A stretch of DNA of 64,000 nt from an uncultured archaeon (GTDB lineage Archaea; Altiarchaeota; Altiarchaeia; IMC4; SCGC-AAA252-I15), in assembly GCA_964587725.1 (NCBI GenBank), contig CAZPLO010000005.1:20774-84773 (forward strand), in the 5' to 3' direction. Positions 21,404 through 40,585 of this stretch are shown one piece after another. Each line of letters opens with the position of its first letter. Within the stretch, counting starts at the first letter, position 1. The position numbers and the translations under genes are program-made. The notes beneath the pieces are model-generated. The model was not told where the DNA came from and ran no database searches. It saw nothing but the letters and a program-made list of their open reading frames with translations.

Positions 21404-21940
21404 ATGGTGGACAGAGGACAGGCAACAGGAGAGCCATCTTACGTGCCTCCTCAGGCTTATTTCACTGGCACTCAGGTAAACTATTTTATCGTCTGTAGGA
21501 GGAAGTTGTGGTTGTTTAGTCGTTTTGTTCGTTTGGAGCAGGAGAGTGAGTTGGTTAAGTTGGGTAAACTCTTGCATGAGGGTAGTTATCGCAGGTCTAA
21601 GGAGGTTGATCTGGGGCCTATTGTTGTTGATTTCATGAGGGAGGGGGAGGATCTTGTTTTGCATGAGGTGAAGAAGAGCCGGAAGCTGGAGGACGCCCAC
21701 GTCTATCAGATGTTGTATTACCTGTATTATTTGAAGCAGAAGGGTGTTGTGGCGGTGGGTCGGATTGATTATCCGAAAATCCGTAAGACGGAGGATGTGG
21801 TGCTGACTCCTGAAAAAGAGGAGGAGGTGGAGGGTATTTTAGAGTCTATACGTGATGTTTTAAGTAGAGATAGGCCTCCGGAGGTTGAGAAAAAGCGGAT
21901 TTGCCGGAAGTGTAGTTATTTTGAGTTTTGTTGGGCATGA
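21404..21940 (+). CDS. cas4: Cas4 exonuclease
   Basis: CRRKLW, GKLLHE, EVKKS, QMLYYLY, CRKCSYFEFC. Confidence 0.95.
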   Translation: MVDRGQATGEPSYVPPQAYFTGTQVNYFIVCRRKLWLFSRFVRLEQESELVKLGKLLHEGSYRRSKEVDLGPIVVDFMREGEDLVLHEVKKSRKLEDAHVYQMLYYLYYLKQKGVVAVGRIDYPKIRKTEDVVLTPEKEEEVEGILESIRDVLSRDRPPEVEKKRICRKCSYFEFCWA

Positions 21941-22926
21941 AGGAGAGTTACTACATCACCCAGGATGGTGTTTTGAAGCGGAAGCAGAATACCGTGTATT
22001 TCATCAACAAAGACGAGAAAAGGATTCTGCCAGTGGAAAAGATCCACTCAATTTATGCATTAGGTAGCCTCTCCTTTACTTCGGGTGTAGTATCTTATCT
22101 GGCTAAGAAGGGTGTTCCGATTCATTTCTTTAATTATTATGGCTTCTATGAGGCAAGTCTTTATCCGAGGGAGCAGTTGGTTTCCGGTGATGTTTTAGTC
22201 CACCAGGTAGGGCACTATGTGGATTTGGATAAACGGCTTCTTTTGGCCCGGGAGTTTATCAGGGGTTGTGGGGGGAATTGTCTTAAGAATCTTGAGTACT
22301 ACGGTAGGACTAAAGGGGGTTTAGCGGAGGATATATCTAAGGTTGAAGGTATTTTGGCGGGTTTGGATGGGGCTGATACAGTGGAGGAGGTTTTGAGTGT
22401 GGAGGGTAATATGTGGAATACGTATTATGGTTGTTTTGACCGTATTCTGCCAGAGAAATTCTGTTTTGAGAAGCGGACTAGGAGGCCGCCGGAGAACATG
22501 GTTAACTGCTTGATTTCCTTTGGTAATTCGCTTTTGTATTCCACTGTGTTGAGTGAAATTTATCATACACAGCTTAATCCTACGGTTTCGTTTTTGCATG
22601 AACCGAGTGACCGGAGGTTTAGTCTGAGTCTGGATTTGGCGGAAGTGTTTAAGCCGTTGCTTGTGGACCGGGTTATCTTTAAGTTGTTGAATAAGGGTAT
22701 GTTAGGTGACGGTGATTTCAGGAGGGATGTTAATTATTGTTTGTTGAATGACCGGGGTAGAAAGACGTTTCTCCGGGAGTGGGATGACCGCCTTCATACT
22801 ACTATAAAGCATAGGCGGTTGGGTAGGAAGGTTTCTTACAGGCGGCTAATCAGGTTGGAGTGTTATAAATTGGTTAAACATATTCTGGGGGATAAAGAGT
22901 ATGTGGCGTTCCAGATTTGGTGGTAG
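21937..22926 (+). CDS. cas1: type I-B Cas1 integrase
   Basis: HFFNYYGFY, RTRRPPENMVN.LISFGNS, SFLHEP..RRFSLSLDLAEVFKP. Confidence 0.97.
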   Translation: MKESYYITQDGVLKRKQNTVYFINKDEKRILPVEKIHSIYALGSLSFTSGVVSYLAKKGVPIHFFNYYGFYEASLYPREQLVSGDVLVHQVGHYVDLDKRLLLAREFIRGCGGNCLKNLEYYGRTKGGLAEDISKVEGILAGLDGADTVEEVLSVEGNMWNTYYGCFDRILPEKFCFEKRTRRPPENMVNCLISFGNSLLYSTVLSEIYHTQLNPTVSFLHEPSDRRFSLSLDLAEVFKPLLVDRVIFKLLNKGMLGDGDFRRDVNYCLLNDRGRKTFLREWDDRLHTTIKHRRLGRKVSYRRLIRLECYKLVKHILGDKEYVAFQIWW

Positions 22927-22929
22927 ATA

Positions 22930-23193
22930 ATGTATGTAGTGGTAGTCTATGATGTGGCGGTTGAGCGGGTGAATAAGGTATGTAAGTACTTGAGGACTCG
23001 GTTGAATTGGGTGCAGAATAGTGTTTTTGAAGGGGAATTAACTAAGGCAGAATTAGTTGAATTGGAGTTGGGTCTTGGAGACTTGATTGATAAAGAAGCA
23101 GACTCCATCCTGTTTTACCTGATTCGTTCCCAGAAAGCCTTAACACGTAAGAAAATGGGTGTTGAGAAGGTTGAATTAGACCGAATAATCTAG
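22930..23193 (+). CDS. cas2: Cas2
   Basis: YVVVVYDV, LNWVQNSVFEG. Confidence 0.96.
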   Translation: MYVVVVYDVAVERVNKVCKYLRTRLNWVQNSVFEGELTKAELVELELGLGDLIDKEADSILFYLIRSQKALTRKKMGVEKVELDRII

Positions 23194-23294
23194 TATTCGT
23201 GGATCTTTTTAAATAAAATACATTTTTAGCCATCCAAGAGAAAAATACATAACAATCAGTAATAGAGGCCACAAAACTCCTGTTTCACGGACGG
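23194..23294 (+). promoter_or_regulatory. CRISPR leader
   Basis: AT-rich 101 bp between cas2 and the first repeat with a TTTAAATA box; repeats end in ATTGAAAT and the degenerate repeat lies at the far end. Confidence 0.7.
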
Positions 23295-25751
23295 GTTAGA
23301 AACAGACTAAAGTAGGATTGAAATTCAGGAGGCACACGTTGGAGAAGGAGAAATACTATAGGTTAGAAACAGACTAAAGTAGGATTGAAATTTAATAGGG
23401 TTTGCAGCCTGGGTTGTGGCGGTAGCGGTTAGAAACAGACTAAAGTAGGATTGAAATTGAGGCGGACGTATTTATCACGCCACACCCAGTATTGTTAGAA
23501 ACAGACTAAAGTAGGATTGAAATACATATGCGACACAATTTAAGATATTCCACTTTTTTAGTTAGAAACAGACTAAAGTAGGATTGAAATTCTCTATATC
23601 CTGCCTTGTATCCCTCATAGATGAGCGTTAGAAACAGACTAAAGTAGGATTGAAATCATGATACTATGTTGTTAGTTTTCAAGTCTATGTTGTTAGAAAC
23701 AGACTAAAGTAGGATTGAAATTTAAACGCTAACGCAAAATATAGGAGGTAGGTTTTCAGTTAGAAACAGACTAAAGTAGGATTGAAATATGGTTTTTCTT
23801 CCTCCAGTATCACGTCCAGTATCAGTTAGAAACAGACTAAAGTAGGATTGAAATGGCAACATGCGCCCATCAGTCAACAGTATATCAAAGTTAGAAACAG
23901 ACTAAAGTAGGATTGAAATACTGTCGATGGTGGAAAATACCCGCCAAACAACAAGTTAGAAACAGACTAAAGTAGGATTGAAATTGACACTAAAAGAAAC
24001 ACTATCCTACAGCCGCCGATAGTTAGAAACAGACTAAAGTAGGATTGAAATACTGCTTCAACAACAAACCATAAAAACCATAGTAAGTTAGAAACAGACT
24101 AAAGTAGGATTGAAATACGGGTATGAGAAACAATATCGTCTGAGGATCCCCCGTTAGAAACAGACTAAAGTAGGATTGAAATATCGAATGAGAGCCTCAT
24201 CAAACAACGAAACCTCCGTTAGAAACAGACTAAAGTAGGATTGAAATAGCCATGAAGACAGAGCAGCAGCAAACCCACCGACGTTAGAAACAGACTAAAG
24301 TAGGATTGAAATCCACACAAGCTAACACAATAAACTTAACTATAGATGTTAGAAACAGACTAAAGTAGGATTGAAATGCAACCTCCTGGTCGTTGTTGTA
24401 GCAGCTGCCTGGTTAGAAACAGACTAAAGTAGGATTGAAATACCGTCATATGTTGAACGCAAAATATACGCCCGAGGTTAGAAACAGACTAAAGTAGGAT
24501 TGAAATTGAAAAAATTCAACCCCTACCTGACCGTGGGAATACGTTAGAAACAGACTAAAGTAGGATTGAAATACAATTATCAAATCGCAGCAATAAACCA
24601 ATGTAAGGTTAGAAACAGACTAAAGTAGGATTGAAATTATTCTATGCTGTCTAAGTCGTGTTCGTTCCGTTGTGTTAGAAACAGACTAAAGTAGGATTGA
24701 AATTTTTCTAAAGGCTGCATATGAAAAGTGACTCCTGAGTTAGAAACAGACTAAAGTAGGATTGAAATCACAACATTAACCCCCGCATTAGACGCGACAA
24801 TAAGGTTAGAAACAGACTAAAGTAGGATTGAAATTTAATAGTATGAGCCCCGACGGCGTGGCTGTGCTGCGTTAGAAACAGACTAAAGTAGGATTGAAAT
24901 ATCTTTTTTCATCGTGTATCACCTTCATTTCATCCTCGTTAGAAACAGACTAAAGTAGGATTGAAATATCAATCAGGTAGAAGAGCCCTAGTTCCCCAGC
25001 CATGTTAGAAACAGACTAAAGTAGGATTGAAATAGAAACAGCCTCCACCCCCTGAACCCGTGGAACAAGTTAGAAACAGACTAAAGTAGGATTGAAATAA
25101 CCAGAGCCGGCTCCAGCGGCAGAACAGGTCCCAGTTAGAAACAGACTAAAGTAGGATTGAAATGCACTTGAGCCGGTATTTTCTGCACAGGCTGTGTATG
25201 TTAGAAACAGACTAAAGTAGGATTGAAATTCTTTTTCACTTCTCCACATCTATTTCTCTGCACGCGTGTTAGAAACAGACTAAAGTAGGATTGAAATGAC
25301 ACTAACCAAGGCCACAGCCACAAACGGCTCTAAGTTAGAAACAGACTAAAGTAGGATTGAAATGAATTCCTTCCTGAACACATTAAGCTTGAAGTCTTTG
25401 TTAGAAACAGACTAAAGTAGGATTGAAATGGGGCTATTGTATGTGCTTCCGCCGTCGTTGGTGTCGTTAGAAACAGACTAAAGTAGGATTGAAATACGCG
25501 GAAGCGGTAGCATCCAATTTCGTGCTATTACGTTAGAAACAGACTAAAGTAGGATTGAAATACGCGGAAGCGGTAGCATCCAATTTCGTGCTATTACGTT
25601 AGAAACAGACTAAAGTAGGATTGAAATAACGGAGTTGGTAGTAGTCTTAGCTTAGACGATTTAGTTAGAAACAGACTAAAGTAGGATTGAAATAACGTTG
25701 ATTTGCAGCGTGATTTGAAGTTGAATGGGGTTAGAAACAGACTATTGAAAT
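23295..25751 (+). CRISPR. CRISPR array: 37 perfect repeats GTTAGAAACAGACTAAAGTAGGATTGAAAT, one internally deleted repeat (25730-25751), 37 spacers of about 34-38 nt
   Basis: Counted by hand; spacers 34 and 35 are identical. Confidence 0.98.
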
Positions 25752-26087
25752 AAAATTCTAGTCTATTTCCTCTATGAATACATCTCCGTTGAAAAACCTT
25801 CCAAAAACATATTCTATCATTTTAATGTTTTTTTCTTGTATTTGAAGGTTTTTTCATGTATTTACTGGAATTTTTCTGTGTAGGGGGTCGGGTGCGTCTT
25901 CATGGGTATTTGGGTGTGTGGAGGATATGGTCCCCTTTTTTTGTAGCCGCATTTGGTTTTTAAGTGTGTGGGACCCCCTATTGTTTGAGTCAGCCCAGAT
26001 AGGGGGTATTTTTTAGGTGTTTTGGCTTATTCGTATGGTTTTTATATCTTATTTATCTGTATCCTTTACTACTAGTTAATAGATCTT

Positions 26088-26792
26088 ATGAACATGTCGT
26101 TACCCACTTATTCGCCGACTGATTTATTGGAGGACCATAAGGGTGTTATTTTCACGGACATAGTGTCGGTTAGATATCCTCTGACGAACGCTGGAGGGTA
26201 TATGAGGCGGATGAGGAGAGAGAATATGTTCAACGACATACAGCATAAAATTAACTCACTGTCCATGGAGGAGAGGGAGGAGATACTCAAGGAACTCATG
26301 GCGTTGGACCCGCACGAGGACACACTAATATCCTGGGCGAAAACATACGAAAAACTCAAGGAAAAAGACTTGAAAAAACTCAAGGAAACATTCACTTCAG
26401 CCGAAGCACTATTCAGGGGATCCAAGACAAAACAGGTGGAGATACTGTATGAGATGCTGTCCAAGGTAAAGTCTGACCTCGTTGGAGTCCAAGAATACCT
26501 ACGGCAGAAAGCAGACTACACGGAAGACATAGAACCCCTGCTGGTGATGGACGAGACAATCACCCACCTAAGAAACGCCACAGACATCATGCGTCACGCA
26601 AAAAAAGACGAACTAGCACAAATAGCAGGCATAATCTTCATCCTACTGATTAGACTGGAAAAATACAGGAGAGGGATGATAGACCTGGACAGACTATACT
26701 GGACCAACGCAACAGCATTCAGGATACTATCCAGGGTGAAGAAACCAGAATCCAAAATCACAGCCGAATTAGTCAACATTCTAGCAGAATAA
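26088..26792 (+). CDS. hypothetical helical protein, translationally coupled to the PIN gene
   Basis: 234-aa ORF whose stop abuts the next ATG; no recognisable motif. Confidence 0.6.
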   Translation: MNMSLPTYSPTDLLEDHKGVIFTDIVSVRYPLTNAGGYMRRMRRENMFNDIQHKINSLSMEEREEILKELMALDPHEDTLISWAKTYEKLKEKDLKKLKETFTSAEALFRGSKTKQVEILYEMLSKVKSDLVGVQEYLRQKADYTEDIEPLLVMDETITHLRNATDIMRHAKKDELAQIAGIIFILLIRLEKYRRGMIDLDRLYWTNATAFRILSRVKKPESKITAELVNILAE

Positions 26793-27473
26793 ATGGAATA
26801 CACGATAGACACCAACATAGTAATCGGGGTCATCAGCAACAAAGACAGACTCAAAGAACCCGCACAAAAACTCCTCAAAAACCAAAAAAGCAAGTCAACA
26901 CTTGTTCTGTCGGAAAACGTCCTCACAGAAACCGTTAAAACATTCAGCCAAAAAGCAAACCAGGCCGAGAAAAAAATCACGTCAGACCAACCCAACCTCC
27001 AACTTAGGTGGAGGGGAGTCCTACAGGAGTTGAAGGACATGCCAGACCAGTCAGTGAAAATAGTTAATGCGGACTTCCTGTTCACGGAATTCTACGTCAC
27101 AGGGTGGAAGGACATAATGCCCGACGCAGAATTGAACGAGTTCGACGAAGCAGCCCTCGGGTGGAGGGCCGGCGGAGGATTCATGGCCGAATTCTTCAAA
27201 CTATGCCGGCAGGCCACCGTAAACCAGGTGAAACGGGTGCTCACCCCAAACGGAAGATTCTACATCACAGAATGGGAGCAGAACCTCCCCCACACACTCG
27301 AATTCCTCGACGAAGCAGGGTTCCAACACGAAAGCCGCCCCCTCACAGACGAGGAAATGGAGAAAACCTGGTTCCTCCAAGAAGCAAAAAAGAAGCTCGC
27401 CACAGGAGAACTACCGCCAGAAGCAACACCGGTGAGAATCCAGGCCACCAAAAAACCAGAGGACAGAAGATGA
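26793..27473 (+). CDS. probable chimera: PIN-domain N-terminus fused to a methyltransferase-like C-terminal fragment
   Basis: YTIDTNIVI...LSENVLTE (PIN start) then VKRVLTPNGRFYITE (class I SAM-MTase-like). Confidence 0.55.
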   Translation: MEYTIDTNIVIGVISNKDRLKEPAQKLLKNQKSKSTLVLSENVLTETVKTFSQKANQAEKKITSDQPNLQLRWRGVLQELKDMPDQSVKIVNADFLFTEFYVTGWKDIMPDAELNEFDEAALGWRAGGGFMAEFFKLCRQATVNQVKRVLTPNGRFYITEWEQNLPHTLEFLDEAGFQHESRPLTDEEMEKTWFLQEAKKKLATGELPPEATPVRIQATKKPEDRR

Positions 27474-27536
27474 GTATCTACCTCATACGCCACGGCCGCT
27501 GGCGTTCGCACTTAAATATTGGTTCGCATATCATAG

Positions 27537-27755
27537 ATGAAGGTTGGTGATTTGATGGAGAACGTTACCTTGGATGTGATTAACAGGAATATCAAGCTGC
27601 TTAGGGAAGACCTAGAATACATTAAAGAGCATATGGTGGACATCGACAGTCTGCTGTCCATAGAAGACCGGCAGGCATTAGAGGAGGCTAGAGCAGAGTT
27701 CAGGGAAAACAAGGCCGTAACACTCGAGGAATTCGAGAAACAACTAAACCTCTAA
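27537..27755 (+). CDS. putative antitoxin upstream of RelE
   Basis: Small acidic protein, LSIEDRQALEEARAEFRENKAVTLEEFEKQL. Confidence 0.7.
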   Translation: MKVGDLMENVTLDVINRNIKLLREDLEYIKEHMVDIDSLLSIEDRQALEEARAEFRENKAVTLEEFEKQLNL

Positions 27756-27756
27756 G

Positions 27757-28011
27757 ATGTACGCGGTCATACCCGGCCCCAGAGCGAAAAAGTTTCTGAA
27801 AAAAGCGAACACCAAACTCCGCGAGAGACTCATACCCAAGATAAAGAAACTCAGCCAAGAACCCTTTCCCCGCGGATGCCTGAAAGTAGTGGGGGAGGAA
27901 AACACATACAGGATAAGAGTCGGAGACTACAGAGTACTATACGAAATAAAAGCTGAAGAAAAAGCCATTCTAATCGCAAACATAGACAAAAGACCAAAAG
28001 CCTACAGATAA
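27757..28011 (+). CDS. RelE/ParE family toxin
   Basis: RAKKFLKK...L..EPFP...KVVG...YRIRVGDYRVLY. Confidence 0.9.
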   Translation: MYAVIPGPRAKKFLKKANTKLRERLIPKIKKLSQEPFPRGCLKVVGEENTYRIRVGDYRVLYEIKAEEKAILIANIDKRPKAYR

Positions 28012-28017
28012 CACAAT

Positions 28018-28617
28018 ATGCCAGTCTACCTAATCCGCCACGGCCAAAGCAGATACAACGTCGAAGACCGGTTCGGCGGAGACAGCGGACTAACTGAAAA
28101 AGGAAGGAAGGATGCCGGACGAGCCGCCGCAGTATTGGATGGTGAAACAATCAACACAGTATACTGCAGCCCCACACAACGAACCAGAGAAACCGCCGAC
28201 ATACTATTGAAAAAACACCCCGAAGCCAGACTGGAACCCGCAGACGAACTCCGGGAGATATCATACGGCGTACTCGAAGGCACGGTGGTGGGCGAACTCA
28301 AAAAACAACAGCCGCAAATGCATGAAGAAAGGAAGGAAGACAAGTATCTATTCAAGCCGCCGGATGGGGAAAACTACCAGGACCTCCAAGCCCGGGTCAT
28401 ACCATTCTATGAACAAGTCGCAGGACAAGAGGGGACGTACGTGCTCGTAACGCACCAGGCCGTCATAAGGACGCTGGTAGCCCACGTAACCAACATCCCA
28501 GACCAGATATTCCCGTACCTCGACCTCCCCAACGACCTAGCCTACCTGATAACAGAAGACACCGTATTATACTACCGCGGCGGGTGGCGGACGTTCACAC
28601 ACCACGAATTCAGGTGA
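28018..28617 (+). CDS. histidine phosphatase (phosphoglycerate mutase family)
   Basis: YLIRHGQS, SPTQRTRETA, LREISYG, VTHQ. Confidence 0.92.
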   Translation: MPVYLIRHGQSRYNVEDRFGGDSGLTEKGRKDAGRAAAVLDGETINTVYCSPTQRTRETADILLKKHPEARLEPADELREISYGVLEGTVVGELKKQQPQMHEERKEDKYLFKPPDGENYQDLQARVIPFYEQVAGQEGTYVLVTHQAVIRTLVAHVTNIPDQIFPYLDLPNDLAYLITEDTVLYYRGGWRTFTHHEFR

Positions 28618-28664
28618 AATGAGGACTTTAAACGTATTTATAGCGGGCGCTGGTATAGGTTAAC

Positions 28665-28880
28665 ATGGGCAAAGACTTCAACATCGTCATAGAGGAGGGG
28701 GAAGACGGGTACTTCATATCCGAGGTTATAGGGCTTCCAGGATGCCACACCCAAGCCAAAACCCTCGACGAACTAGTGAAAAGAACCAAAGAAGCCATCT
28801 CACTGTACCTGAAGTGTGAGAAAGGCGTTAAAACAAAAGACACATTCCTGGGCGTGCAGAAAATCACTGTCAGCGGATGA
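28665..28880 (+). CDS. hicB: HicB family antitoxin
   Basis: IEEGEDGYF.SEV.GLPGCHTQAKTLDE. Confidence 0.88.
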   Translation: MGKDFNIVIEEGEDGYFISEVIGLPGCHTQAKTLDELVKRTKEAISLYLKCEKGVKTKDTFLGVQKITVSG

Positions 28881-29107
28881 TGGCTAAACTCCCGCTACTG
28901 AAAGCCAAACAACTGATTAAGGTCTTGGACAAACTCGGCTTCAAACTCATCCACCGGGAAGGAAGCCACATCTTCCTCAAACACCCAGACGGAAGAACAA
29001 CAGTGGTGCCAGACCACAGAGGCGAGGAAATAGACCGCAGACTACTCAACAAAATAATCAAAAAAGACCTTGAAATAACCAGGAAAGAATTCCTGAAACA
29101 CCTCTAA
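28877..29107 (+). CDS. hicA: HicA family toxin
   Basis: LIKVLDKLGF...REGSHIFLKHPDGRTTVVPDH. Confidence 0.9.
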   Translation: MMAKLPLLKAKQLIKVLDKLGFKLIHREGSHIFLKHPDGRTTVVPDHRGEEIDRRLLNKIIKKDLEITRKEFLKHL

Positions 29108-30330
29108 CCAGACAGCACCCTGACACCATACTCCAGCATTTTATCGGCGAATACATTCTTACGCTTCTTTACTTCAGCCTCAGTCTCCCCCAGCTTGGAC
29201 CGGAGTTTGGATAGGTCGCTGCGGACGCCGTCCAAATCCGTGCGGGCTGATTCAACCCTGCCCTCAAGCCTGCGGCGGCGCCCGAACACCTCGATGCCGT
29301 CGAAGGCTTCGCGGGCGGCTGAAAGGTCAGACTCACGCTTACTGTGTTCCTGCCGCAGCGCTGGGGTGAGGTCGTTCAACGCCTCATCCACTTTCGCCAA
29401 ACTCTTCTCCCGGCTCTTCAATTTCAGCCGGCCGGATTCCACCGCCGACTTCAAACCCAACATCATGGAATTGAACTGTCCCTCATCCGATTTCAAAAAG
29501 CCCGCTACGGGGTCGTCCAACAGCGAAGAAATCAGCTTCGCGTCCGGCGGCGAATGGCGGGTGAACTTCCGCAGCACACGCCGCAGACCCCCGACGTGAG
29601 AATGAATAGAGTCTTCAACGGATTTTAGAGCCGACTCAGCCCGTTCCACGCGCTCCCGGACAGACTTCACCTCCTCGCCCTCGGATTCTTGAACAGCCCC
29701 GTGAAGGTCGGACTCCAACGTTTTGAGTTCAGACTCCTTCGAAGCGACGGCTTCCTCAGCCTCTTTTATCTGACTCCCGACATCCTCGGCGGAAGACATG
29801 AGCTGTTTTATGCCGTCGTATTCCCGCTGCAGCGCCGCGTACTCGCCCTCGCCAGTGATTTCCCCAAGCCTCTCCGACTGCTCCAGCAGCCGCTTACACC
29901 TGACCTGGATGTCGTTCATCAGCTGCTGATACGACAGCTGCAGGTAGCGGCCGTCGCCGAAGTTCGCCTTCCCAATCGACTCCAGCTCATCCTTCAGGAG
30001 GACAGAATATCCGCCCGGCGGTTTATCCAAGCCCTCCTCCAACGTGTCGACGGACCGGAGCATGGACTCCACATACGCGGGCTTGCTCGTCGCAACAACC
30101 TTCGCAATGCGCTCGTTCATGCCGTCCGCTTTAGAGGAATCGAGCTTCTGAAGGCCCCTGCGGATTTCCTTGAGAAGCTTCCCAACGTTCTCCAGTATGG
30201 GCTGGGCTTCGGACGAGACCTTTGCGGATTCAGTAGCCTGTTTATCCCGCAGCCAGTCGCCCACCTCACCGAAGGACAGCTCAACCTCATCCGGCTCCTC
30301 CTTCCCGAACAATGAATCCAGGAACCCCAT
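29104..30330 (-). CDS. coiled-coil hypothetical protein
   Basis: Likely start MGFLDSLFG at 30330; long heptad-rich helical ORF. Confidence 0.7.
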   Translation of the reverse strand: MGFLDSLFGKEEPDEVELSFGEVGDWLRDKQATESAKVSSEAQPILENVGKLLKEIRRGLQKLDSSKADGMNERIAKVVATSKPAYVESMLRSVDTLEEGLDKPPGGYSVLLKDELESIGKANFGDGRYLQLSYQQLMNDIQVRCKRLLEQSERLGEITGEGEYAALQREYDGIKQLMSSAEDVGSQIKEAEEAVASKESELKTLESDLHGAVQESEGEEVKSVRERVERAESALKSVEDSIHSHVGGLRRVLRKFTRHSPPDAKLISSLLDDPVAGFLKSDEGQFNSMMLGLKSAVESGRLKLKSREKSLAKVDEALNDLTPALRQEHSKRESDLSAAREAFDGIEVFGRRRRLEGRVESARTDLDGVRSDLSKLRSKLGETEAEVKKRKNVFADKMLEYGVRVLSG

Positions 30331-30394
30331 AGCACACACATAGACGTGAGCAGATAAAAAACCATTTATAAAGGCAGACCCCAACCCGTATACC

Positions 30395-30762
30395 ATGGCC
30401 GATAAAAACGTTGTGGGATGGTTTGAGGTGCCTGTGGAAGACATGGACCGGGCTGTGAAATTCTATGAAACCGTGCTCGGACACAAGCTGGAACGGCATG
30501 ATATGGGGCCGCTGCAGATGGCGTGGTTCCCCATGGTCGAAGACGCAATCGGGACGCCCGGGTCGCTGGTGAAGCATGAAAGCTACAAGCCGTCGGCGGA
30601 CGGCACAGTAATATGCTTCACCGCGTTCAGCGGAGACCTGGAAAACGAACTCGCGAAAGTCGAATCCGCAGGCGGAAAAATACTCCAACCCAAAAAAGAG
30701 ATAGGGGAATACGGGTACATTGCCCTCATAGTGGACACATAGCACTACACAGCAGAAAATAG
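30395..30762 (+). pseudogene. VOC/glyoxalase family gene with a frameshifting deletion near the 3' end
   Basis: GWFEVPVEDMDRAVKFY; frame stops at IVDT* but IALHSRK* follows in another frame; the usual EGNR linker is missing. Confidence 0.75.
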
Positions 30763-30768
30763 GATTAC

Positions 30769-30819
30769 AAACTATTTGCAGTTTATTACAAATAGTTTAA
30801 AGTAAAGTTTAAACTATTT
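30769..30819. terminator. AT-rich nested inverted repeats between convergent genes
   Basis: AAACTATTTG/CAAATAGTTT and AAATAGTTTAAA/TTTAAACTATTT. Confidence 0.4.
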
Positions 30820-31576
30820 AAACTTCCATATCCACCCTGCATTCCTTCTCCAGTTCCGCCACCACAAAATCCGCTATCTTCTCCAAATTGACTGTGTCGT
30901 CGCGGTTGTATGCGACCAGCTTCTTCAACGCCTGCTTGCCCCTGTATTTTTCGCCGGCGACCTCCACCGTCCTGTTGCAGGTGTACGCCTTCCACAGGCG
31001 GACGGCGTCGTAGCCTGACACGCCGTCGCTGCCGCGGCTCACGCCGAGCTGCTTCTCAATCGACTTCAACCCGCCACTGTAGCCGAGGTGGCGGAGGGGA
31101 TACATCAAATCCAGGTGTATCTGGTGGAAACCCATGTTCAGGCTCTTCGACAGGAACGGGAGGTCGAAGCGGCCGCCGTTAAACGACACAATATACTTGA
31201 ACTCATGCAGGTCGTTTCTGAGGTTCTTCATGTTCTCGCCCGCAACGTAACTGCGGGTGCCCTTCGACGAGTGGAGGCACACGGTCGTGACGGTGTCATA
31301 CACCGGAGAGAGGCCGGTGGTCTCGATGTCCAGAAAGCAGGCGTCGCCGCGGAATGGATTGAACGCACGCCAAGTCAAATGGGAGCCAAGGCGGTCGCGG
31401 AAGTAACAGTGGTCGCCGGCCTCCAGACGGCCCAGGCTCTCCAACACCACCGCCTTATAAGGCTTAGACCCGCCGTTGTCAACGTACTCGCCCCAGGAAT
31501 GAAATCCTTCACGCCACAGACGCTTCTCCGTCACCGGACCCACGCCGGGGATATGCTGGAACGTCGACTCAAGCAT
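30818..31576 (-). CDS. YprB/RNase_H_2-like 3'-5' exonuclease with N-terminal HhH
   Basis: IPGVGP, FLDIETTG, SFNGGRFDLPFL, HLDL, GGLKSIE, YNRDD. Confidence 0.88.
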   Translation of the reverse strand: MLESTFQHIPGVGPVTEKRLWREGFHSWGEYVDNGGSKPYKAVVLESLGRLEAGDHCYFRDRLGSHLTWRAFNPFRGDACFLDIETTGLSPVYDTVTTVCLHSSKGTRSYVAGENMKNLRNDLHEFKYIVSFNGGRFDLPFLSKSLNMGFHQIHLDLMYPLRHLGYSGGLKSIEKQLGVSRGSDGVSGYDAVRLWKAYTCNRTVEVAGEKYRGKQALKKLVAYNRDDTVNLEKIADFVVAELEKECRVDMEV

Positions 31577-31635
31577 TGGAAAGTATTAGATGGGGTGGAA
31601 TAAGAGTTATAACCGATGTAGGCCATCAATTAAAC

Positions 31636-31837
31636 GTGAGAGTTAGGGATGTCATCAAGATGCTGAGAGAAGACGGATGGTATGTGGTGGCCCATAAGGG
31701 AAGCCACATACAGTTCAAACACTCCACCAAAAAAAGGGAGGGTAACAATAGCCGGGCACCCAAGCCACCACTTGGCTCCAGGCACCTTCAACAGCATATT
31801 AAAACAAGCAAAGATAAAGAATAACGGAGGGGAATAA
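31636..31837 (+). pseudogene. hicA: HicA toxin frameshifted at an A7 run (31729-31735)
   Basis: VIKMLREDGW...KGSHIQFKH; removing one A restores KKGRVTIAGHPSHHLAPGTFNSILKQA and a stop abutting the hicB ATG. Confidence 0.85.
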
Positions 31838-32071
31838 ATGCGCAAATACCTGATAGTGTATGAGAGGACCGAAGACGGCTACTCGGCCTACACACCGGAC
31901 CTAGAGGGATGTGTAGCCACAGGCGAGACCAAGAAAAAAGCTGAAAAAAACATGTACAGAGCCCTTGAAATGCACATTAAAGGACTAGTGGAAGACGGGG
32001 AACCCCTGCCCAAACCGGAGTCCACATCAGAATACATTCTGTTCGACGAAAAAAACCTGCTTGGAGCGTGA
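31838..32071 (+). CDS. hicB: HicB family antitoxin
   Basis: YSAYTPDLEGCVATGET...ALEMHIKGLVEDGEPLPKP. Confidence 0.9.
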   Translation: MRKYLIVYERTEDGYSAYTPDLEGCVATGETKKKAEKNMYRALEMHIKGLVEDGEPLPKPESTSEYILFDEKNLLGA

Positions 32072-32117
32072 ACGTCGACTCACGCATTGGAAACTATTAG
32101 ATGAGGGGAAATAATAA

Positions 32118-32810
32118 TCAGCCCATCTTCCGCAGCTCCAAACCGCAGACGGTCAAAGCCAGGTGGACGGACATCAGGTAGACCAGCCCCAACACCATCA
32201 GCAGGCGGGTGTTGGAGACAATCCACAGGTCGCGGGTGAACTTCGTCGACACGCGGTCCAGCTGCGCACTCATCTCCTCGAAGTCCGCGGACAATTTCCG
32301 CATGTCGTCGGCGTTAGACTCCAGGTAATCGGCGGTCTCATCCAGTTCATCGGAGGCGGTCGAGACATGGGAGGACACCTCCGCCATGCTCTCCGACGCG
32401 TTAGAAAGACTCTCCGACAACGCAGTGAACTTCACAGACACACCCTCGAACTGCGTCACACCCAACAGGGACAAACTGCCGTGGACCGCGGAAAACCCGG
32501 AGGCGACGTCGCCGGACAATGAAGAAGCCAGCGCCAGCGTATCACTCGAGTCAGACAACGTGTCGCGGACGCTCCCCTCGGCCTCAGCCACCGCCCGCAG
32601 CGCATCCTCCGCCTGCCCCACACTCAATGCGGCGTTGTATGAGGCTATGGACGCGTCGTCCATGGCGGCGGACATCGCCTTGAACTCCCCCTCGACGGAC
32701 TCGGACAAATCGGAGCCGCCGAACCCGGTGAACGCCACCAACGGCAGCATCAGCCCGAAGACGATGAACCCCGCCACCCCGTAACCTATTACGGCATCCG
32801 ACAGACGCAT
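32118..32810 (-). CDS. two-TM membrane protein with helical/coiled-coil extracellular region
   Basis: Likely start MRLSDAV at 32810; N- and C-terminal TM helices. Confidence 0.65.
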   Translation of the reverse strand: MRLSDAVIGYGVAGFIVFGLMLPLVAFTGFGGSDLSESVEGEFKAMSAAMDDASIASYNAALSVGQAEDALRAVAEAEGSVRDTLSDSSDTLALASSLSGDVASGFSAVHGSLSLLGVTQFEGVSVKFTALSESLSNASESMAEVSSHVSTASDELDETADYLESNADDMRKLSADFEEMSAQLDRVSTKFTRDLWIVSNTRLLMVLGLVYLMSVHLALTVCGLELRKMG

Positions 32811-32873
32811 AGAAGGATTCTGGTTAACAGGATTTATAAACGCACACGCCTGAATAGTGAGAAGGTGAAGCAG

Positions 32874-33413
32874 ATGACGACGGAAGACAACATCAAGGCC
32901 GCGTTCGCGGGGGAAAGCCAGGCGCGGAACAAGTACGTGTTCTACGCGAAGGCGGCGCGGAAGCAGGGATACCACTACATAGCCAAAGTGTTCGAGGAGA
33001 CGGCGTTGAACGAGGTCCAGCACGCCAAAGACCACCTCAAGATGCTCAACGGCATAGGAGACACTGCAGCCAACCTGAAGGACGCAATCGAGGGCGAACA
33101 CTACGAGACCCTGGACATGTACCCCAGCTTCGCCGAGGAAGCCGAGAAAGAAGGCAACGAAGACGCTGCGAGGCTGTTCAGGAACATCGCCAAGATAGAG
33201 GAGAAACACCGGGACAGATACAATAAGCTGCTGAAGATGGTGGAGGACGGCACCGTATACAAGCGAAGCAAACCCATCAAGTGGCGGTGCAGCAAATGCG
33301 GATACCTCCACGAAGGCACGGAACCGCCTGAAAAATGCCCGTCGTGCAAGCACCCGAAGGAATATTATGAGCCGGCTTGCATGTGCTTCCAAGACGACTG
33401 CGACAGCTGCTAA
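32874..33413 (+). CDS. rbr: rubrerythrin
   Basis: AFAGESQARNKY, EVQHA, EEKH, C-terminal CSKCGY...CPSC. Confidence 0.95.
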   Translation: MTTEDNIKAAFAGESQARNKYVFYAKAARKQGYHYIAKVFEETALNEVQHAKDHLKMLNGIGDTAANLKDAIEGEHYETLDMYPSFAEEAEKEGNEDAARLFRNIAKIEEKHRDRYNKLLKMVEDGTVYKRSKPIKWRCSKCGYLHEGTEPPEKCPSCKHPKEYYEPACMCFQDDCDSC

Positions 33414-33506
33414 AGCTTCAGCGCCTTGGAGGCCGCGTCTTCAGGAGATGCCTGCAGTTTAAAGTTGGTGGGGGCGTATATAAACGGGTAGTGGGTATTC
33501 TCTTAT

Positions 33507-33647
33507 GTGGAACAGGGTTTCGTGTCGATTCCTAAGAGCGAGTACGAGCTGCTCAGGAAAAAAGCTGAAATAGCCGACGACGCAGTCATACAGCTTAACC
33601 TCAGCCTCAGCGACCTCAGACAGGGTAGGGTGAGCAAATTCCTATAG
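33507..33647 (+). CDS. 46-aa putative antitoxin (not in ORF track)
   Basis: GTG start: MEQGFVSIPKSEYELLRKKAEIADDAVIQLNLSLSDLRQGRVSKFL*; TATAAA about 25 nt upstream. Confidence 0.65.
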   Translation: MEQGFVSIPKSEYELLRKKAEIADDAVIQLNLSLSDLRQGRVSKFL

Positions 33648-33947
33648 CGAGTGCAGATAATCTAAAAGTTCATCACCGTTCGCCAATACAAAATCGATTA
33701 TCTTCTGCTGCTCTTTTTTGGACGCAAACGCCATGAAAAGGATCTTCTTCCCCGCATCATCAACTAGAAAATAAAGTCTTTTGCTCGAGTATTTTTTCTC
33801 ACGAAACCAGTTGAAATGAAGGGGTTTGCCTGCAGGGTTATCCTCCAACTGGTCCTTAATCTTATGAATCCACTCCCGTTCGTCCTTCGTTAAAGTCTTA
33901 TACAGTTTCTGGAATGATTCAGTAGCATAAACGTCGTACTTAAGCAT
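33642..33947 (-). CDS. RelE-like toxin (divergent)
   Basis: YDVYATESFQKLYKTL...QLEDNPAGKPL..FREKK...RLYFLV...SKKEQQKII. Confidence 0.65.
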   Translation of the reverse strand: MLKYDVYATESFQKLYKTLTKDEREWIHKIKDQLEDNPAGKPLHFNWFREKKYSSKRLYFLVDDAGKKILFMAFASKKEQQKIIDFVLANGDELLDYLHSL

Positions 33948-33987
33948 CAGTCAAGACTTACAGGCCTCTGGATAAAAATAGCTGCTG

Positions 33988-34473
33988 CTAAAGCTCCAGC
34001 GCCTTGGAGGCCGCGTCTTCAGCCGACGCTACAACGATGCGTTGGATGCGCCGGTCGCCGGGGAAGGCGTCTTTGACCGTGTCGGAGACGCCGCCGCTAC
34101 CTTTAACCGCCACAACCGGCTTGCCGTAGTTCAACGCCATGCAGATTTCACTCAAGGTTCCTGTGCTGCCGTTGACTGCGATGACCGCGTCCGCCGATGA
34201 TACGACGAGGGAGTTCCGCATGTACCCTAACCCCGTCGGTATTACGACGTCTACGAAGGGGTTCGCGTCCGAGCCGTCGGAGGACGGCAGAATACCCACG
34301 GTGACGCCGCCCTTATCCTTAGCGCCCTTGCATGCGGCCTCCATGACGCCGCCGCGGCCGCCGCATATGAGAACGCAGCCGGAGGAGGCGATGTCAGCCC
34401 CGACACGTTCGGCCATCGCGCGAACCTCGTCCGGCAGGTCCGCGTCCACACCTATCACTGAAATGCGCTTCAT
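33988..34473 (-). CDS. TIGR00725-like SLOG/LOG-related protein
   Basis: CGGRGGVMEAAC.GA, VGILP, TGLG..RN, GTLSE. Confidence 0.9.
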   Translation of the reverse strand: MKRISVIGVDADLPDEVRAMAERVGADIASSGCVLICGGRGGVMEAACKGAKDKGGVTVGILPSSDGSDANPFVDVVIPTGLGYMRNSLVVSSADAVIAVNGSTGTLSEICMALNYGKPVVAVKGSGGVSDTVKDAFPGDRRIQRIVVASAEDAASKALEL

Positions 34474-35792
34474 CTCAACCTGCCGAATGTTTTAGTGAGA
34501 AAGTCGCGTACCCTCTCCTCGTTCGCTTTCACGTCATCCCGCAGGACTTCCACGTTGAAGCACACGCTCTTCAGCCCAGCACCTATCTTCTCCCCCTTGT
34601 AGACGTCCCGCACCTTAACGGACGCGACGGAATCCACTTCGGATATGATGAGCTGCGAAACAAACCCCTCGTCGGCGGACTCATCCAACACGACGGAGTA
34701 GTCCTTCGATGCGGTGCCGTACTTCTGTTTCTTGAACTCGAATTTTTCGGCGTCACCCAAGACCACCAGGTTAGAAAGCTTCAAGGTCTTCCGCTTCCCG
34801 CCCTCGTTTAACACCACCTCGTCGGGTGAAACGGATTCGACCACACCTAGGTGGCCGACGCCAGAGTACATGTGTCGTAGACAGATTTCCTCGCCCACCG
34901 AACCCTTCAGCGCCTTCAGCTCCGCCACCAGACTGCCGATGGCCTTGTCGCTCCGCCCCATCGAACGCTCCGTATCCCCGAAGTGTTTCGCGGCGTCCGC
35001 CATCATCGACACGAAATCCTCCTCGCGTTTCCCGCGGACGGCGTCGCTCAGCTCCCGCGCCGACCTGAAGAAGCTGTCGTGGACGTCCACCACTCTCGGA
35101 TTCTGCATCTGGATTTCAGCGTACAGGTGTGGGTCCTGGCCGATAATCCTGCCTATCATGTCCAGCATCAGCTCGTACACGGGGCTTGAAAACTGCCGCG
35201 ACCGCTTCACATCCAACCCCATGTCCTTCAGTGTTTTGCCGACGCTGATGTATGTGAAGTGGGTCAGACCCTGAACCACAGCCATCACCTCGTCGTGTTC
35301 CTCCGGCGTGGAGTCGATGATGCGGGCGTTGTGCTTCTCCAGCATATCCCGCAGCCACTTCAGCCACTTCTTGCCGCGGACGGGAGTCAGCACGAACACC
35401 TGCCCGTCTATGGAACCGACGCGGGGCCCGAATATGGGGTGGGTCCCCACCACCTCCACTTTCTTAGAAGAATGCTCGGCCATCAGTTCACAAGGCCACG
35501 ATTTCACAGACGTCAAGTCGCAGAGTAATGCGCCGTCTTTCACGTGCGGAGCCACCTCCCCTATGGTATCGGCAGTCACCGCGATGGGGACGGTTATGAC
35601 GACGACGTCCGCGTCCTTAACGGCCTCCGCGTTGTCTTGGACGTATTTTACGCCGAGTTCCTCGGCGGCCTTCAACCCCTTACGTTCCGTCGGCCCCGCT
35701 ACGGTGACGTCGCAGCCTTCGCCCTTGAACAGCTTCGCGAACAGCCGGCCCATCCCACCGTATCCGCCGACAATCGACACCTGCACGGTCAT
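34470..35792 (-). CDS. tyrA: prephenate dehydrogenase with C-terminal extension ending in an FDX-ACB-like domain
   Basis: GGYGGMG, DLTSVK, THPIFGP, EEHDEVMAVVQGLTH; C-terminal KDYSVV...DVYKGEKIGAGLKSVCF. Confidence 0.88.
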   Translation of the reverse strand: MTVQVSIVGGYGGMGRLFAKLFKGEGCDVTVAGPTERKGLKAAEELGVKYVQDNAEAVKDADVVVITVPIAVTADTIGEVAPHVKDGALLCDLTSVKSWPCELMAEHSSKKVEVVGTHPIFGPRVGSIDGQVFVLTPVRGKKWLKWLRDMLEKHNARIIDSTPEEHDEVMAVVQGLTHFTYISVGKTLKDMGLDVKRSRQFSSPVYELMLDMIGRIIGQDPHLYAEIQMQNPRVVDVHDSFFRSARELSDAVRGKREEDFVSMMADAAKHFGDTERSMGRSDKAIGSLVAELKALKGSVGEEICLRHMYSGVGHLGVVESVSPDEVVLNEGGKRKTLKLSNLVVLGDAEKFEFKKQKYGTASKDYSVVLDESADEGFVSQLIISEVDSVASVKVRDVYKGEKIGAGLKSVCFNVEVLRDDVKANEERVRDFLTKTFGRLR

Positions 35793-35826
35793 CCTTATAA
35801 TATTCTTTAAGATAATATATTATCTG

Positions 35827-37383
35827 ATGGATTTCGACGATTATGGGGAGTTAAGCCTGGAACACGAATACCATAATCTCGGCAACGACTACTACAAGAT
35901 TGGGGAGTTCGACAAGGCCATCGACCACTACAACAAGGCGTTGGAGCTCCGCCCCGACCTGCTGGAGACATACTTCAACCGGGGGCTCGCGTACACGAGG
36001 AAGCAGCTGTACGACAAAGCCCTTGAAGACCTGAGCAAGGTCATTGAGTTGAACCCGAACCTGGCGGAAGCGTACTATACGAGGGGGCTGATACACGAGT
36101 ACAAGCTGGAATACGACCTCGCCGTCCTCGACTACAACAAGGCCCTGGAGGTGGACCCGAAGTACAGTAAGGCTGAGACGCAGCGGCAGGTGGCGTTGAA
36201 CAAGAAAGCCAGCCTCCAGGCGGGGGGAGGGGGTGGAGCGCCTGCGATGACGCCCGGAGCCCCGGGAGGCGGCGAAGGCGACGGCCTCACCAAGTTCCAG
36301 ATTATGGAGAAGCCGGACATGCACTTCGACGACGTCGCAGGCCTCGAGAAAATCAAGAACAGAATCCTCGAATACATCGTGTTCCCGCTGCGGAAGCCGG
36401 AGCTGGCGAAAAGATACGGGAAGGAGGCGGGCGGCGGAGTAATCATGTACGGGCCCCCAGGCTGCGGTAAAACCTACATCGCCAAAGCCTCCGCAGGCGA
36501 ATGCGAGAGCTCGTTCATGAGCGTGAAGATGAGCGACATCGTCGACATGTACGCGGGCAACACGGAGAAGAACCTCCACAACGCCTTCGAAACCGCGCGC
36601 ACAAACACACCCTGCATACTGTTCTTCGACGAAATCGACGGCATAGCCGGGAAGCGGGAGGGGATGGACCAGAGCTTCGAGAAGCGTGCGATAAACCAGT
36701 TCCTCCTGGAGATGGACGGCGTCGAATACAGCAACGACGGAGTCCTCGCGATAGGCGCCACCAACGCCCCCTGGGACATCGACGCCGCGCTGAGGCGGTC
36801 GGGTCGTTTCAGCAGGACCATATACATCGGAGAGCCGGACACGAAGACGAGGAGGGAGATACTGAAGCTGCACCTGAAGAACCGGCCGTACACCAAAAAC
36901 CTCCCCATCGGGCGTATAGCCAGGATGACGGAGGGGTATTCGCCGGCAGACCTCGCGCAGCTGGTGGAGGCGGCGGCGACGATACCCTGGCTGGAGGCAT
37001 ACAATACAGGAAAGGAACGGGTTATCGTGTTCAATGACTTCCTGAAGGCGACGTCCGGAGACGACGCGGTGACGCCGTCGCTGCCTGCTTGGTACGGGAG
37101 CGTGAAGGACAAGCTCATAGAAGAGGACGAGAACGAGGACGAGAAATACAAGCACGGTTTCATGCGGGGGGTGTTCATGGAGATAATCTCGTTGGAGACG
37201 CCGGAGGGGCAGGGCGGCGGTAAGGAGCAGACGGTGAAGCACAAGCAGGAGCAGGACGAGCTGCTCAGCGAAGAGGACAGGAGGCTGTTCAGCCACCTCA
37301 TCAAGGACATAGAGAAGAGAACAGACGGCATCTACCTGTTCACCAGGAAAATAAGGACCATGTTCGCCAGGTACGTGATGTAG
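35827..37383 (+). CDS. TPR-repeat AAA+ ATPase (classic AAA clade, CDC48/Vps4-like)
   Basis: ATG at 35827; 3-4 TPRs, Gly/Pro linker, GPPGCGKT, FFDEID, ATNAPWDIDAALRRSGRF. Confidence 0.88.
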   Translation: MDFDDYGELSLEHEYHNLGNDYYKIGEFDKAIDHYNKALELRPDLLETYFNRGLAYTRKQLYDKALEDLSKVIELNPNLAEAYYTRGLIHEYKLEYDLAVLDYNKALEVDPKYSKAETQRQVALNKKASLQAGGGGGAPAMTPGAPGGGEGDGLTKFQIMEKPDMHFDDVAGLEKIKNRILEYIVFPLRKPELAKRYGKEAGGGVIMYGPPGCGKTYIAKASAGECESSFMSVKMSDIVDMYAGNTEKNLHNAFETARTNTPCILFFDEIDGIAGKREGMDQSFEKRAINQFLLEMDGVEYSNDGVLAIGATNAPWDIDAALRRSGRFSRTIYIGEPDTKTRREILKLHLKNRPYTKNLPIGRIARMTEGYSPADLAQLVEAAATIPWLEAYNTGKERVIVFNDFLKATSGDDAVTPSLPAWYGSVKDKLIEEDENEDEKYKHGFMRGVFMEIISLETPEGQGGGKEQTVKHKQEQDELLSEEDRRLFSHLIKDIEKRTDGIYLFTRKIRTMFARYVM

Positions 37384-37384
37384 G

Positions 37385-37855
37385 ATGAAAAAAGGCCAGG
37401 GTGCCATGGAGTACCTGATGACGTACGGCTGGGGCATACTCGCCGTACTCATCATAGGGATAGTGATGTGGCAGCTAGGCATATTCGAAGGCGGCGTCGA
37501 AGCAGTCACCTACAGGGGTTTCGCGCGCATAAAACCCATAGCCAACGTCATAGAGCTTAAGTCCGACGGCACCTTCCAGGGCACCTTCGAAAACCTCAAC
37601 GGCGTCAAGGTGTCAATCAACGCGGTGAACGCCACCAACCGCTTCGACTCCGTGGACTGCACGGCGGCGGCCGCAACCCCGTTGGAGGTGCCGCACGGAG
37701 AGTTCTTCAAAATAGACGCCAGCGGGTGCACCAGCCAAACGCATCAGCCCGGGGAAGACTACGAACTAGACGTCACCATAGAATACGACATGACCGTCGT
37801 CGGAATAGCCGCGACACACAGGGACGGGGGAACAATCAGGGGAATGTACAATTAA
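37385..37855 (+). CDS. class III signal peptide (type IV pilin-like) protein
   Basis: MKKGQGAMEYLMTYGWGILAVLIIG. Confidence 0.85.
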   Translation: MKKGQGAMEYLMTYGWGILAVLIIGIVMWQLGIFEGGVEAVTYRGFARIKPIANVIELKSDGTFQGTFENLNGVKVSINAVNATNRFDSVDCTAAAATPLEVPHGEFFKIDASGCTSQTHQPGEDYELDVTIEYDMTVVGIAATHRDGGTIRGMYN

Positions 37856-37873
37856 AAAGAATGGATGGGGGGT

Positions 37874-40585
<2,712 letters not shown>

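Follow-up and report, generated by a model that had tools for sequence, protein, structure and literature searches.

Toxin-antitoxin cassettes between duplicated host gene ends in an uncultured altiarchaeal genome

How do small genes for defence or addiction, toxin-antitoxin (TA) modules among them, move in the absence of a nearby mobile element? This long-standing gap is raised three times over by a 64,000-nt stretch of DNA from an uncultured archaeon (Altiarchaeota, IMC4, SCGC-AAA252-I15; assembly GCA_964587725.1, contig CAZPLO010000005.1, positions 20,774 to 84,773), which we call the window. Three direct-repeat pairs in the window surround three small, low-GC cassettes with TA-type genes, and each repeat copies a terminus of a host gene, as we confirmed. 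All three pairs were found where a preliminary description of the window had placed them, at spacings of 548, 511 and 578 bp. Reading of the sequence and its open reading frames (ORFs), together with Pfam and NCBIfam matches, bore out its assignment of the copied termini to the 5' end of a phosphatase gene, the 5' end and upstream region of an exonuclease gene and the 3' end of a TIGR00725-like gene. The effect of the duplication is that each neighbouring gene keeps a complete terminus. The source genome is a 1.56-Mb metagenome-assembled genome (MAG) that is 92% complete (G000; other G numbers denote relatives, L numbers the loci examined and C numbers contigs).

The first cassette is located at the 5' end of a histidine phosphatase gene (28018..28617, plus strand; His_Phos_1, E 2.9e-43). 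Copy 2 of its repeat (27993..28045, plus) is the working start of this gene, and copy 1 (27447..27497, plus) joins the functional 3' end of an upstream ORF, whose stop codon (27471-27473) overlaps an ATG, to an orphan phosphatase stub (ATG..YLIRHG). The repeat comprises the first 28 nt of the His_Phos_1 gene and the final nucleotides of the upstream ORF, and the stub reads MSIYLIRHG in copy 1 versus MPVYLIRHG in the intact phosphatase of copy 2. An ungapped alignment pairs 27457-27497 with 28005-28045 (41 nt, 76% identity, spacing 548), and a gapped alignment lengthens the repeat to the full intervals given above (41-53 nt, ~76%). The cassette holds a putative 72-aa antitoxin (27537..27755, plus) and a ParE-family toxin (27757..28011, plus; PF05016, 36.8 bits against a cut-off of 23), the last codons of which extend into repeat copy 2. 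Judged from its sequence, this is probably a type II TA pair, the adjacent small partner being without a family match. The 226-aa ORF upstream of the cassette (26793-27473) looks chimeric: its residues 4-67 resemble PIN domains at scores under the cut-offs, and residues ~144-189 are weakly like the C-terminal part of a class I methyltransferase. This ORF may be the scar of an earlier rearrangement in the low-GC stretch 26000-29150.

At the second locus, a HicAB cassette adjoins the 5' end of an RNase_H_2-superfamily exonuclease gene (30818..31576, minus strand; Pfam/NCBIfam). The repeat (31559..31603 and 32070..32114, plus; 45 nt, 89% identity, spacing 511) consists of the first six exonuclease codons and the whole 27-nt spacer upstream of them. 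Copy 1 provides the working first 18 nt of the exonuclease and the spacer, and copy 2 is an orphan stub, reading MRESTF versus MLESTF in the intact exonuclease, that ends 3 nt from the stop codon of an upstream minus-strand gene. The cassette is trimmed to a minimum, with 3 nt from repeat copy 1 to a TATA-like box and with the HicB stop codon overlapping repeat copy 2 by 2 nt. The HicB antitoxin is intact (31838..32071, plus; PF15919, 39.5 bits); the HicA toxin (31636..31837, plus) is interrupted by a +1 frameshift in a run of seven A (A7, 31729-31735), and both halves match PF07927. In four homologues of this cassette, the common stretch extends only from the TATA-like box to the HicB stop codon. 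Host genes differ between the homologues, and each has its own repeat: the cassette of the window is inserted at the exonuclease 5' end, that of G022 in a MazG-like gene and that of G044 in an Hjc-like gene. HicA is broken in the same region in a homologue from G011 (L046, G011:C14, ~100740-100909), and the homologues in G022 and G044 are intact. The breakage looks like recurrent inactivation of the toxin with the antitoxin kept, or like slippage-prone phase variation.

The third cassette lies between two convergent host genes, a rubrerythrin gene (32865..33413, plus strand) and a gene for a TIGR00725/SLOG cluster4 protein (33988..34473, minus; Pfam/NCBIfam). Its repeat (33406..33451 and 33984..34029, plus; 46 nt, 91% identity, with a 39-nt core at 97%, spacing 578) takes in the final 42 nt of the SLOG gene and the final 8 nt of the rubrerythrin gene; the rubrerythrin stop codon overlaps the SLOG end. 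Copy 1 contains the working rubrerythrin end and an orphan stub of the SLOG 3' end (..SPEDAASKALKL*), and copy 2 is the working 3' end of the SLOG gene. The cassette encodes a 101-aa protein (33642..33947, minus) and, convergent with it, a 46-aa ORF with its own TATA-like box (33507..33647, plus); this gene pair is kept together in genome G008. The 101-aa protein has no Pfam or NCBIfam match and is RelE/ParE-like solely by language-model features (Atlas feature score 0.97 to automatically named RelE/ParE clusters), which is a lead rather than a test. The earlier count of three TA pairs stands for the HicAB cassette, with the reservation that HicA of cassette 2 is frameshifted, probably holds for the ParE cassette, and is loosened for cassette 3, where a toxin-like gene and a convergent ORF do not form a classical operon. 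We read the three loci as minimal, self-promoted addiction cassettes (ParE with a partner, HicAB, and a RelE-like protein with a partner) placed at host gene ends of which 40-50 nt have been duplicated.

Does the same arrangement recur elsewhere? The genome-wide repeat scan proposed in the preliminary description found that direct-repeat pairs bracket 7/18 Pfam-defined HicA, ParE, PIN and AAA_14 loci of the source genome, compared with 3.7% of genome positions. The bracketed loci are 3/5 for HicA, 1/4 for ParE (leaving out window cassette 1, whose repeat is below the threshold), 1/5 for PIN and 2/4 for strong AAA_14 matches. Isolated direct-repeat pairs number 22 at spacings of 200-1000 bp, versus ~1 per 400-bp bin beyond 2 kb. 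Among these loci, a perfect 33-nt repeat at C3:26240 surrounds a ParD-like gene and an 89-aa partner without a family match, and duplicates both ends of two convergent genes with overlapping stop codons. Elsewhere, a 37-nt repeat at C20:19088 (97% identity) encloses a PIN_2 gene and two others coding for 74 and 265 aa, and a 60-nt repeat at C37:5366 (93%) encloses HicAB. On C11 (1-4000, L052), a gene 3' end of 80-90 nt is present three times and parts an AAA_14-DUF4143 ATPase from HicBA. Contig C25 (1-3500, L055) likewise has three copies of a 64-nt repeat, without Rfam or tRNA match, at a DUF6036 nucleotidyltransferase and an AAA_14-DUF4143 ATPase. The C11 and C25 loci suggest that AAA_14-DUF4143 ATPases, too, behave as selfish or addictive cassettes.

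We extended the screen to relatives of the same order (41 genomes). In a first set, 10/30 HicA loci were bracketed by repeats of 22-111 nt lying 538-829 bp apart, and 6/12 HicA loci from outside the source genome were bracketed in a second set. The same screen applied to ribosomal S24e loci returned 1/30, a single weak 23-nt pair. Some members of these counts are weak, being short or of doubtful coding status (L039 and L040 in relatives, C8:55 in G000). Gene ends are duplicated in relatives, too. Examples from 3' ends are the terminal 22 nt of a replication factor C (RFC) gene, the terminal 112 nt of a class-II aldolase-like gene and, at a HicBA cassette (L024), the terminal 22 nt of a tRNA gene; from 5' ends, 109-151 nt are copied in two other genes. 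A search of genome contigs with HicB returned bacterial records only (32-51% identity, various phyla), and 5/10 of these HicB loci were bracketed. In 4 of the 5, the repeat corresponds to a host gene 3' end and goes no further than its stop codon; two are arrays with three copies. Bracketing thus applies to between about a third and a half of the HicAB loci sampled, suggesting that this mode of insertion is common for TA modules. In archaea and bacteria alike, selfish genes seem to use it commonly, as a route that needs no recombinase.

Two of the bacterial loci, L073 and L075, come from MAGs labelled as different phyla. In both, one and the same 412-aa aminotransferase-like gene has the same HicAB cassette at its 3' end, with identical repeat boundaries and an extra cassette in one of the two. 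The explanation is either unreliable MAG labels or a widely shared locus.

Several gene ends have received more than one cassette. In the arrays on C11, in the bacterial loci L075 and L076 and at the aldolase-gene hotspot of the sister species G024 and G028, every copy ends at the same host stop codon and the inner ends differ, spanning ~38 to 160 nt. The copies measure 38 and 75 nt in L075 and 44 and 139 nt in L076. At the aldolase-like gene, G028 has HicBA with a 112-nt stub, and G024 (L135, G024:C31:69500-80500, reverse strand) has at the same 3' end an array of an Eco57I-like restriction-modification (RM) pair (663 and 926 aa), an ORF with an acylphosphatase domain and a Fic/DOC gene, with three stubs of roughly 90, 160 and 55-85 nt. 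A 1-nt insertion and a substitution are common to all three G024 stubs and lacking from the two intact genes. Judging from these shared changes, the stubs would therefore descend from one another, travel with the cassettes or be homogenised.

Could the feature be an artefact of chance repeats, paralogous gene ends or misassembly? Repeat 1 is just 76% identical and includes an RHG motif that is found family-wide, and two candidates of the genome-wide screen proved to be paralogue pairs. We rejected both: two tRNA-binding domains surround an Mrr_cat gene at C8:33446-34398, and two UppS-like N-termini surround a PIN/Zn-ribbon gene at C3:59811-60969, in each case without a stub. Such pairs call for caution in automated screens, and may be sites where recombination between paralogues frames a cassette. 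A Markov-1 random genome equal in size to the source genome yielded 1 repeat pair in 1.56 Mb at the score threshold passed by repeats 2 and 3; repeat 1 is under this threshold when scored without gaps and rests on its context. The orphan stubs are cut at 6-14 codons and sited exactly at neighbouring gene ends, a placement that argues against coincidence, as does the S24e control. We further compared contigs containing the stretch from 4 runs of one study, two samples of which are possibly the source. In the non-source samples X3 and X4, contigs bridge all six repeat copies with 0 differences and no joints (X3: records 15, 16 and 18), which contradicts the misassembly that the preliminary description had named as a possible refutation. 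The artefact reading is already largely refuted, and we consider it barely credible.

Composition indicates where the cassettes came from. Their GC content is 0.40-0.48, compared with 0.55-0.65 in the host genes on either side, and the whole stretch 26000-29150 is low in GC. The cassettes are compositionally foreign, as expected of horizontal acquisition.

We looked for alleles without the cassettes. One same-genus pair provides an empty site for a related locus: in G035 (L136, G035:C27), the RFC stop codon overlaps the ATG of the next gene, and at the same RFC position its congener G044 (L088, G044:C62) has 1036 nt made up of HicBA, a 22-nt RFC stub and a second TA pair. The latter consists of a 67-aa and a 99-aa RelE-like protein, and a similar promoter-like stretch precedes both cassettes. 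For the three window loci, species-representative relatives yielded no empty-site allele; their DNA is at most 74% identical, and synteny is lacking at the sites. In G001 and G013, the exonuclease orthologue is flanked by different genes, and the rubrerythrin and SLOG genes of relatives are on separate contigs or far apart. A search of metagenome contigs with the exonuclease protein returned only 3 distant matches of 22 residues and revealed no locus in synteny. The contigs of the 4 runs, in which rare variants are invisible, likewise hold no indels, empty-site forms, excised circles or single-copy junctions at the three window loci.

Which machinery inserted the cassettes? The inserts of 466-532 bp extend from promoter to stop codon and encode no recombinase. 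They are minimal, as the preliminary description had them. We found neither terminal inverted repeats (TIRs) nor conserved sequences at cassette ends. The window has no match to PF00589, PF07282, PF01609 or PF00665, and the genome has none to TnpB, DDE_Tnp_1 or rve. The earlier statement that integrases, transposases and TIRs are absent from the window holds for TIRs and for recombinase and transposase families, and needs amending for a Cas1 gene at 21949-22785. This gene, the only Cas1 in the genome, lies ~4.7 kb upstream of cassette 1, beside a CRISPR array (~23294-25700, 30-nt repeats), and nothing ties it to the cassettes. The single tyrosine recombinase of the genome is on contig C27; archaeal XerA is its best match, with a score of 104 bits where the cut-off is 220.

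These observations bear on site-specific integration, in which the repeats would be attL/attR sites of decayed integrase elements or of integrase-less satellites, resembling cis-mobilisable elements (CIMEs), that are moved in trans. The tRNA 3' end duplicated in L024 is a classic att site, tandem arrays at one site resemble attB accretion, and restoration of gene ends is typical of integrases (PMC4158269, PMC2853133). Rfam searches matched only the tRNA in L024 and gave no match at window positions 20000-40000, and ARAGORN found no tRNA at nine other repeat-bearing loci. At least nine different repeat sequences in the source genome face the one XerA-like recombinase, no other integrase or transposase having been matched. 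Inner repeat boundaries also vary inside one array, cassette ends are not conserved, and the perfect 76-156 nt repeats around minimal cassettes of 500-770 bp would require that deletion of the remaining element was fast and precise many times. We thus regard site-specific integration as improbable, and the trans-acting recombinase of the preliminary description is less favoured than its other proposal, homology-facilitated recombination with a related allele, the L024 case being the point that speaks for it. Searches of viral contigs with the toxin-like protein of cassette 3 and with HicB returned no matches.

A second explanation is a long target-site duplication made de novo, in which the two nicks of a staggered double-strand break lie 20-150 nt apart, fill-in proceeds around a linear cassette, and selection keeps only those insertions whose duplication restores the gene ends. 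Many repeats are young, with 97-100% identity (111 nt in L029, 76 nt in L036, 99 nt in L038, 156 nt in L085 and 33 nt at C3:26240), as expected if recipient sequence has simply been copied. The same explanation accounts well for one cassette family entering different genes with its own repeat each time, and for repeats that cover two overlapping gene ends and save both genes, as in window cassettes 1 and 3 and at C3:26240. Duplications of 45-47 bp and longer without mobility genes have moreover been reported for RM systems in the account of Furuta et al. (PMC2853133). For RM systems, DNA breakage is the proposed trigger; the TA toxins found here are RNases or of ParE type and not DNA-breaking restriction enzymes, so that this trigger is missing. 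We know of no enzyme that makes such variable staggers. The arrays argue in the same direction, since independent events share an outer boundary that is exactly the stop codon. Random staggered cuts would not reuse one boundary, whereas a homologous arm ending at the start of the cassette would, and we take the fixed boundary as a sign of a homology-driven process.

The substitutions between repeat copies provide a further test. Over the coding parts of the repeats in 15 comparisons, we counted 41.8 synonymous differences at 234 sites and 44.2 non-synonymous differences at 780 sites, corresponding to a pN/pS of 0.32. This value departs from neutrality of both copies (P 1.6e-7) and from the 0.55 predicted for one constrained and one decaying copy (P 0.007), and is thus lower than simple decay of a stub after a staggered break would predict. 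It follows that much of the divergence arose while both copies sat in working genes, as if one of them had come from a related allele. Together with the array boundaries, this makes the staggered break unlikely in our judgement.

We therefore favour capture of the cassettes by host homologous recombination, through one short gene-end arm and one illegitimate joint, and consider the chances of this mechanism to be about even. A cassette would arrive from a related donor joined to a short piece of a neighbouring conserved gene, and the host homologous recombination machinery would cross over within this single short arm. The other end would be closed by an illegitimate joint, either in homology-facilitated illegitimate recombination or by circularisation followed by Campbell-type integration. 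The product would have the order gene end, cassette, gene-end stub, and repeated rounds at one gene end could build integron-like arrays. Direct repeats invite deletion, and so mainly addictive modules would be expected to persist between them; such survival would explain a cargo spectrum of TA, RM, Fic and ATPase genes. Of the mechanisms named in the preliminary description, homology-facilitated recombination with a related allele is thus the one that the stop-codon boundary and the substitution pattern support.

Several observations weigh against capture through a gene-end arm. One cassette family is found at different targets, so that new gene-end arms would have to be made time and again in an illegitimate step, which the model leaves unexplained. 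The young repeats, 97-100% identical over 76-156 nt, fit de novo duplication of recipient sequence equally well, and the insertion shared by the G024 stubs could reflect gene conversion within the array. The pN/pS ratio is heterogeneous, reaching 1.5 in L075, with all of the 3/3 differences in L085 being non-synonymous; the estimate ignores transition bias, and two of the comparisons share a copy. The window loci lack an empty-site allele, circle or junction variant in material consisting of relatives at most 74% identical and of contigs. Finally, repeated insertion sequence or integrase genes may have remained unassembled in a MAG that is 92% complete.

A bolder version of the homologous-capture mechanism would make the stub a portable attachment site. 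Each addictive cassette (TA, RM, Fic and STAND-like ATPases) would be accompanied on its travels by 20-160 nt copied from the terminus of a conserved host gene. Ordinary homologous recombination would move such cassettes in and out, and arrays resembling integrons would form without an integrase at the ends of housekeeping genes in archaea and bacteria. The stub would then play the role of attC and be inherited with its cassette, and the insertion specific to the G024 stubs would reflect this inheritance. We advance this idea tentatively, as a possibility that is on the doubtful side.

Small TA modules in the window do not always come with repeats. A fourth pair, HicB (28665-28880, plus strand) and HicA (28877-29107, plus), both identified by Pfam, has no flanking repeat, and its homologues in relatives are likewise without one. 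In this pair and in cassette 2, HicA_toxin and HicB_lk_antitox score above the Pfam cut-offs in neighbouring genes, with HicA of cassette 2 being the frameshifted copy described above.

What do these loci mean for the movement of small defence genes? They extend a mode of insertion to archaea and reveal multi-cassette hotspots at conserved gene ends. The loci also show regularities that can be tested: a fixed boundary at a stop or start codon, a variable inner boundary and an allele-like divergence of the repeat copies. If host recombination indeed suffices, a general recombinase-free route for the flux of defence genes would exist, and a simple rule would be at hand for spotting recently acquired cassettes in MAGs.

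We compared the cassettes with other systems that move or accumulate small genes. DNA transposons and miniature inverted-repeat elements have TIRs and short target duplications of fixed length; the cassettes have no TIRs and duplications of 22-156 nt. Casposons carry a Cas1 family integrase and TIRs and generate a ~14-15 nt target duplication. Here, the sole Cas1 belongs to the surroundings of a CRISPR array, TIRs are absent, and the duplications are longer and variable. CIMEs have att-like direct repeats, lack their own recombinase and undergo tandem accretion, but are kilobases long and use the att site of a resident integrative and conjugative element (ICE) or integrative mobilisable element (IME) integrase. 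The repeats described here are many and unrelated, and no such integrase was found in the 92% complete MAG, which has one XerA-like gene. Integron cassettes, those of archaeal integrons (PMC9668308) among them, resemble ours in several ways: they are 0.5-1 kb long, often TA pairs, and form head-to-tail arrays at one platform, parted by repeated sites. In contrast to attC hairpins, the repeats in our arrays are coding ends of housekeeping genes; we found no IntI or attI and no inverted-repeat structure or attC palindrome at the boundaries, and the sole tyrosine recombinase, on C27, is XerA-like and below the cut-off.

Homology-facilitated illegitimate recombination is known from naturally transformable bacteria, in which foreign DNA enters beside a conserved gene through one homologous anchor and one illegitimate joint, and the joint can duplicate or delete recipient sequence. 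This process is known from laboratory transformation with long anchors; it is not known to operate in archaea, with arms of 20-150 nt or as a natural route for TA cassettes. A literature search that combined it with TA modules returned one modelling paper on an unrelated matter.

A single TA case comes close to ours. In Microcystis aeruginosa, a type II TA pair, the ParE/ParD module, lies between two identical 152-bp direct repeats and is not accompanied by a recombinase (PMC7935541). In the part of that report concerned with the module, the repeats are intergenic and contain an inverted repeat, unlike those described here, and are not read as a gene-end duplication or as a general mode of insertion. 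Our literature searches, made in open full texts, turned up no systematic treatment of such insertions, either of TA cassettes or in archaeal genomes.

The closest relative of the arrangement is found among RM systems, for which insertion with long target duplication is said to have been described by Nobusato and colleagues in 2000 (Gene 259:99). Furuta, Abe and Kobayashi 2010 (PMC2853133) defined "insertion with long target duplication" for RM systems by repeats of >30 bp and the absence of mobility genes, and gave as a case H. influenzae, where repeats of 45-47 bp overlap the 3' ends of genes. In the sections of their paper that concern us here, the mechanism is called unknown, double-strand breakage is suggested, and the authors state that their selection left no RM system from archaea. 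A review by Mruk and Kobayashi 2013 (PMC3874152) credits this mode of insertion to RM systems and, in the corresponding part of its text, does not state it for TA modules. The novelty implied by the preliminary description thus falls away in so far as the same type of insertion has already been set out for RM systems (PMC2853133). Measured against that definition, the window cassettes have duplications above 30 bp (41-53, 45 and 46 nt) and inserts below 20 kb with no mobility genes in or beside them; in place of R and M genes, the inserts contain TA pairs. The definition also asks for a genome with an empty site whose single copy aligns with both repeats, and among our loci a filled-versus-empty pair is seen at the related locus of G044 and G035. 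The differences from the RM cases lie in the cargo, which consists of type II TA modules (HicAB, ParE/RelE, PIN) and AAA_14-DUF4143 ATPases, in the archaeal host, in the size of ~0.5 kb per cassette, and in the multi-cassette arrays at one gene end with a fixed stop-codon boundary. What is shared is an addictive unit without mobility genes, between long and variable direct repeats that duplicate the target. We conclude that the feature is real and recurs, and that the cassettes entered by an event of the kind known from RM systems as insertion with long target duplication; for the cassettes, we infer the mechanism given above. Indeed, the Eco57I-like RM cassette of our relative G024 is found in exactly this arrangement.

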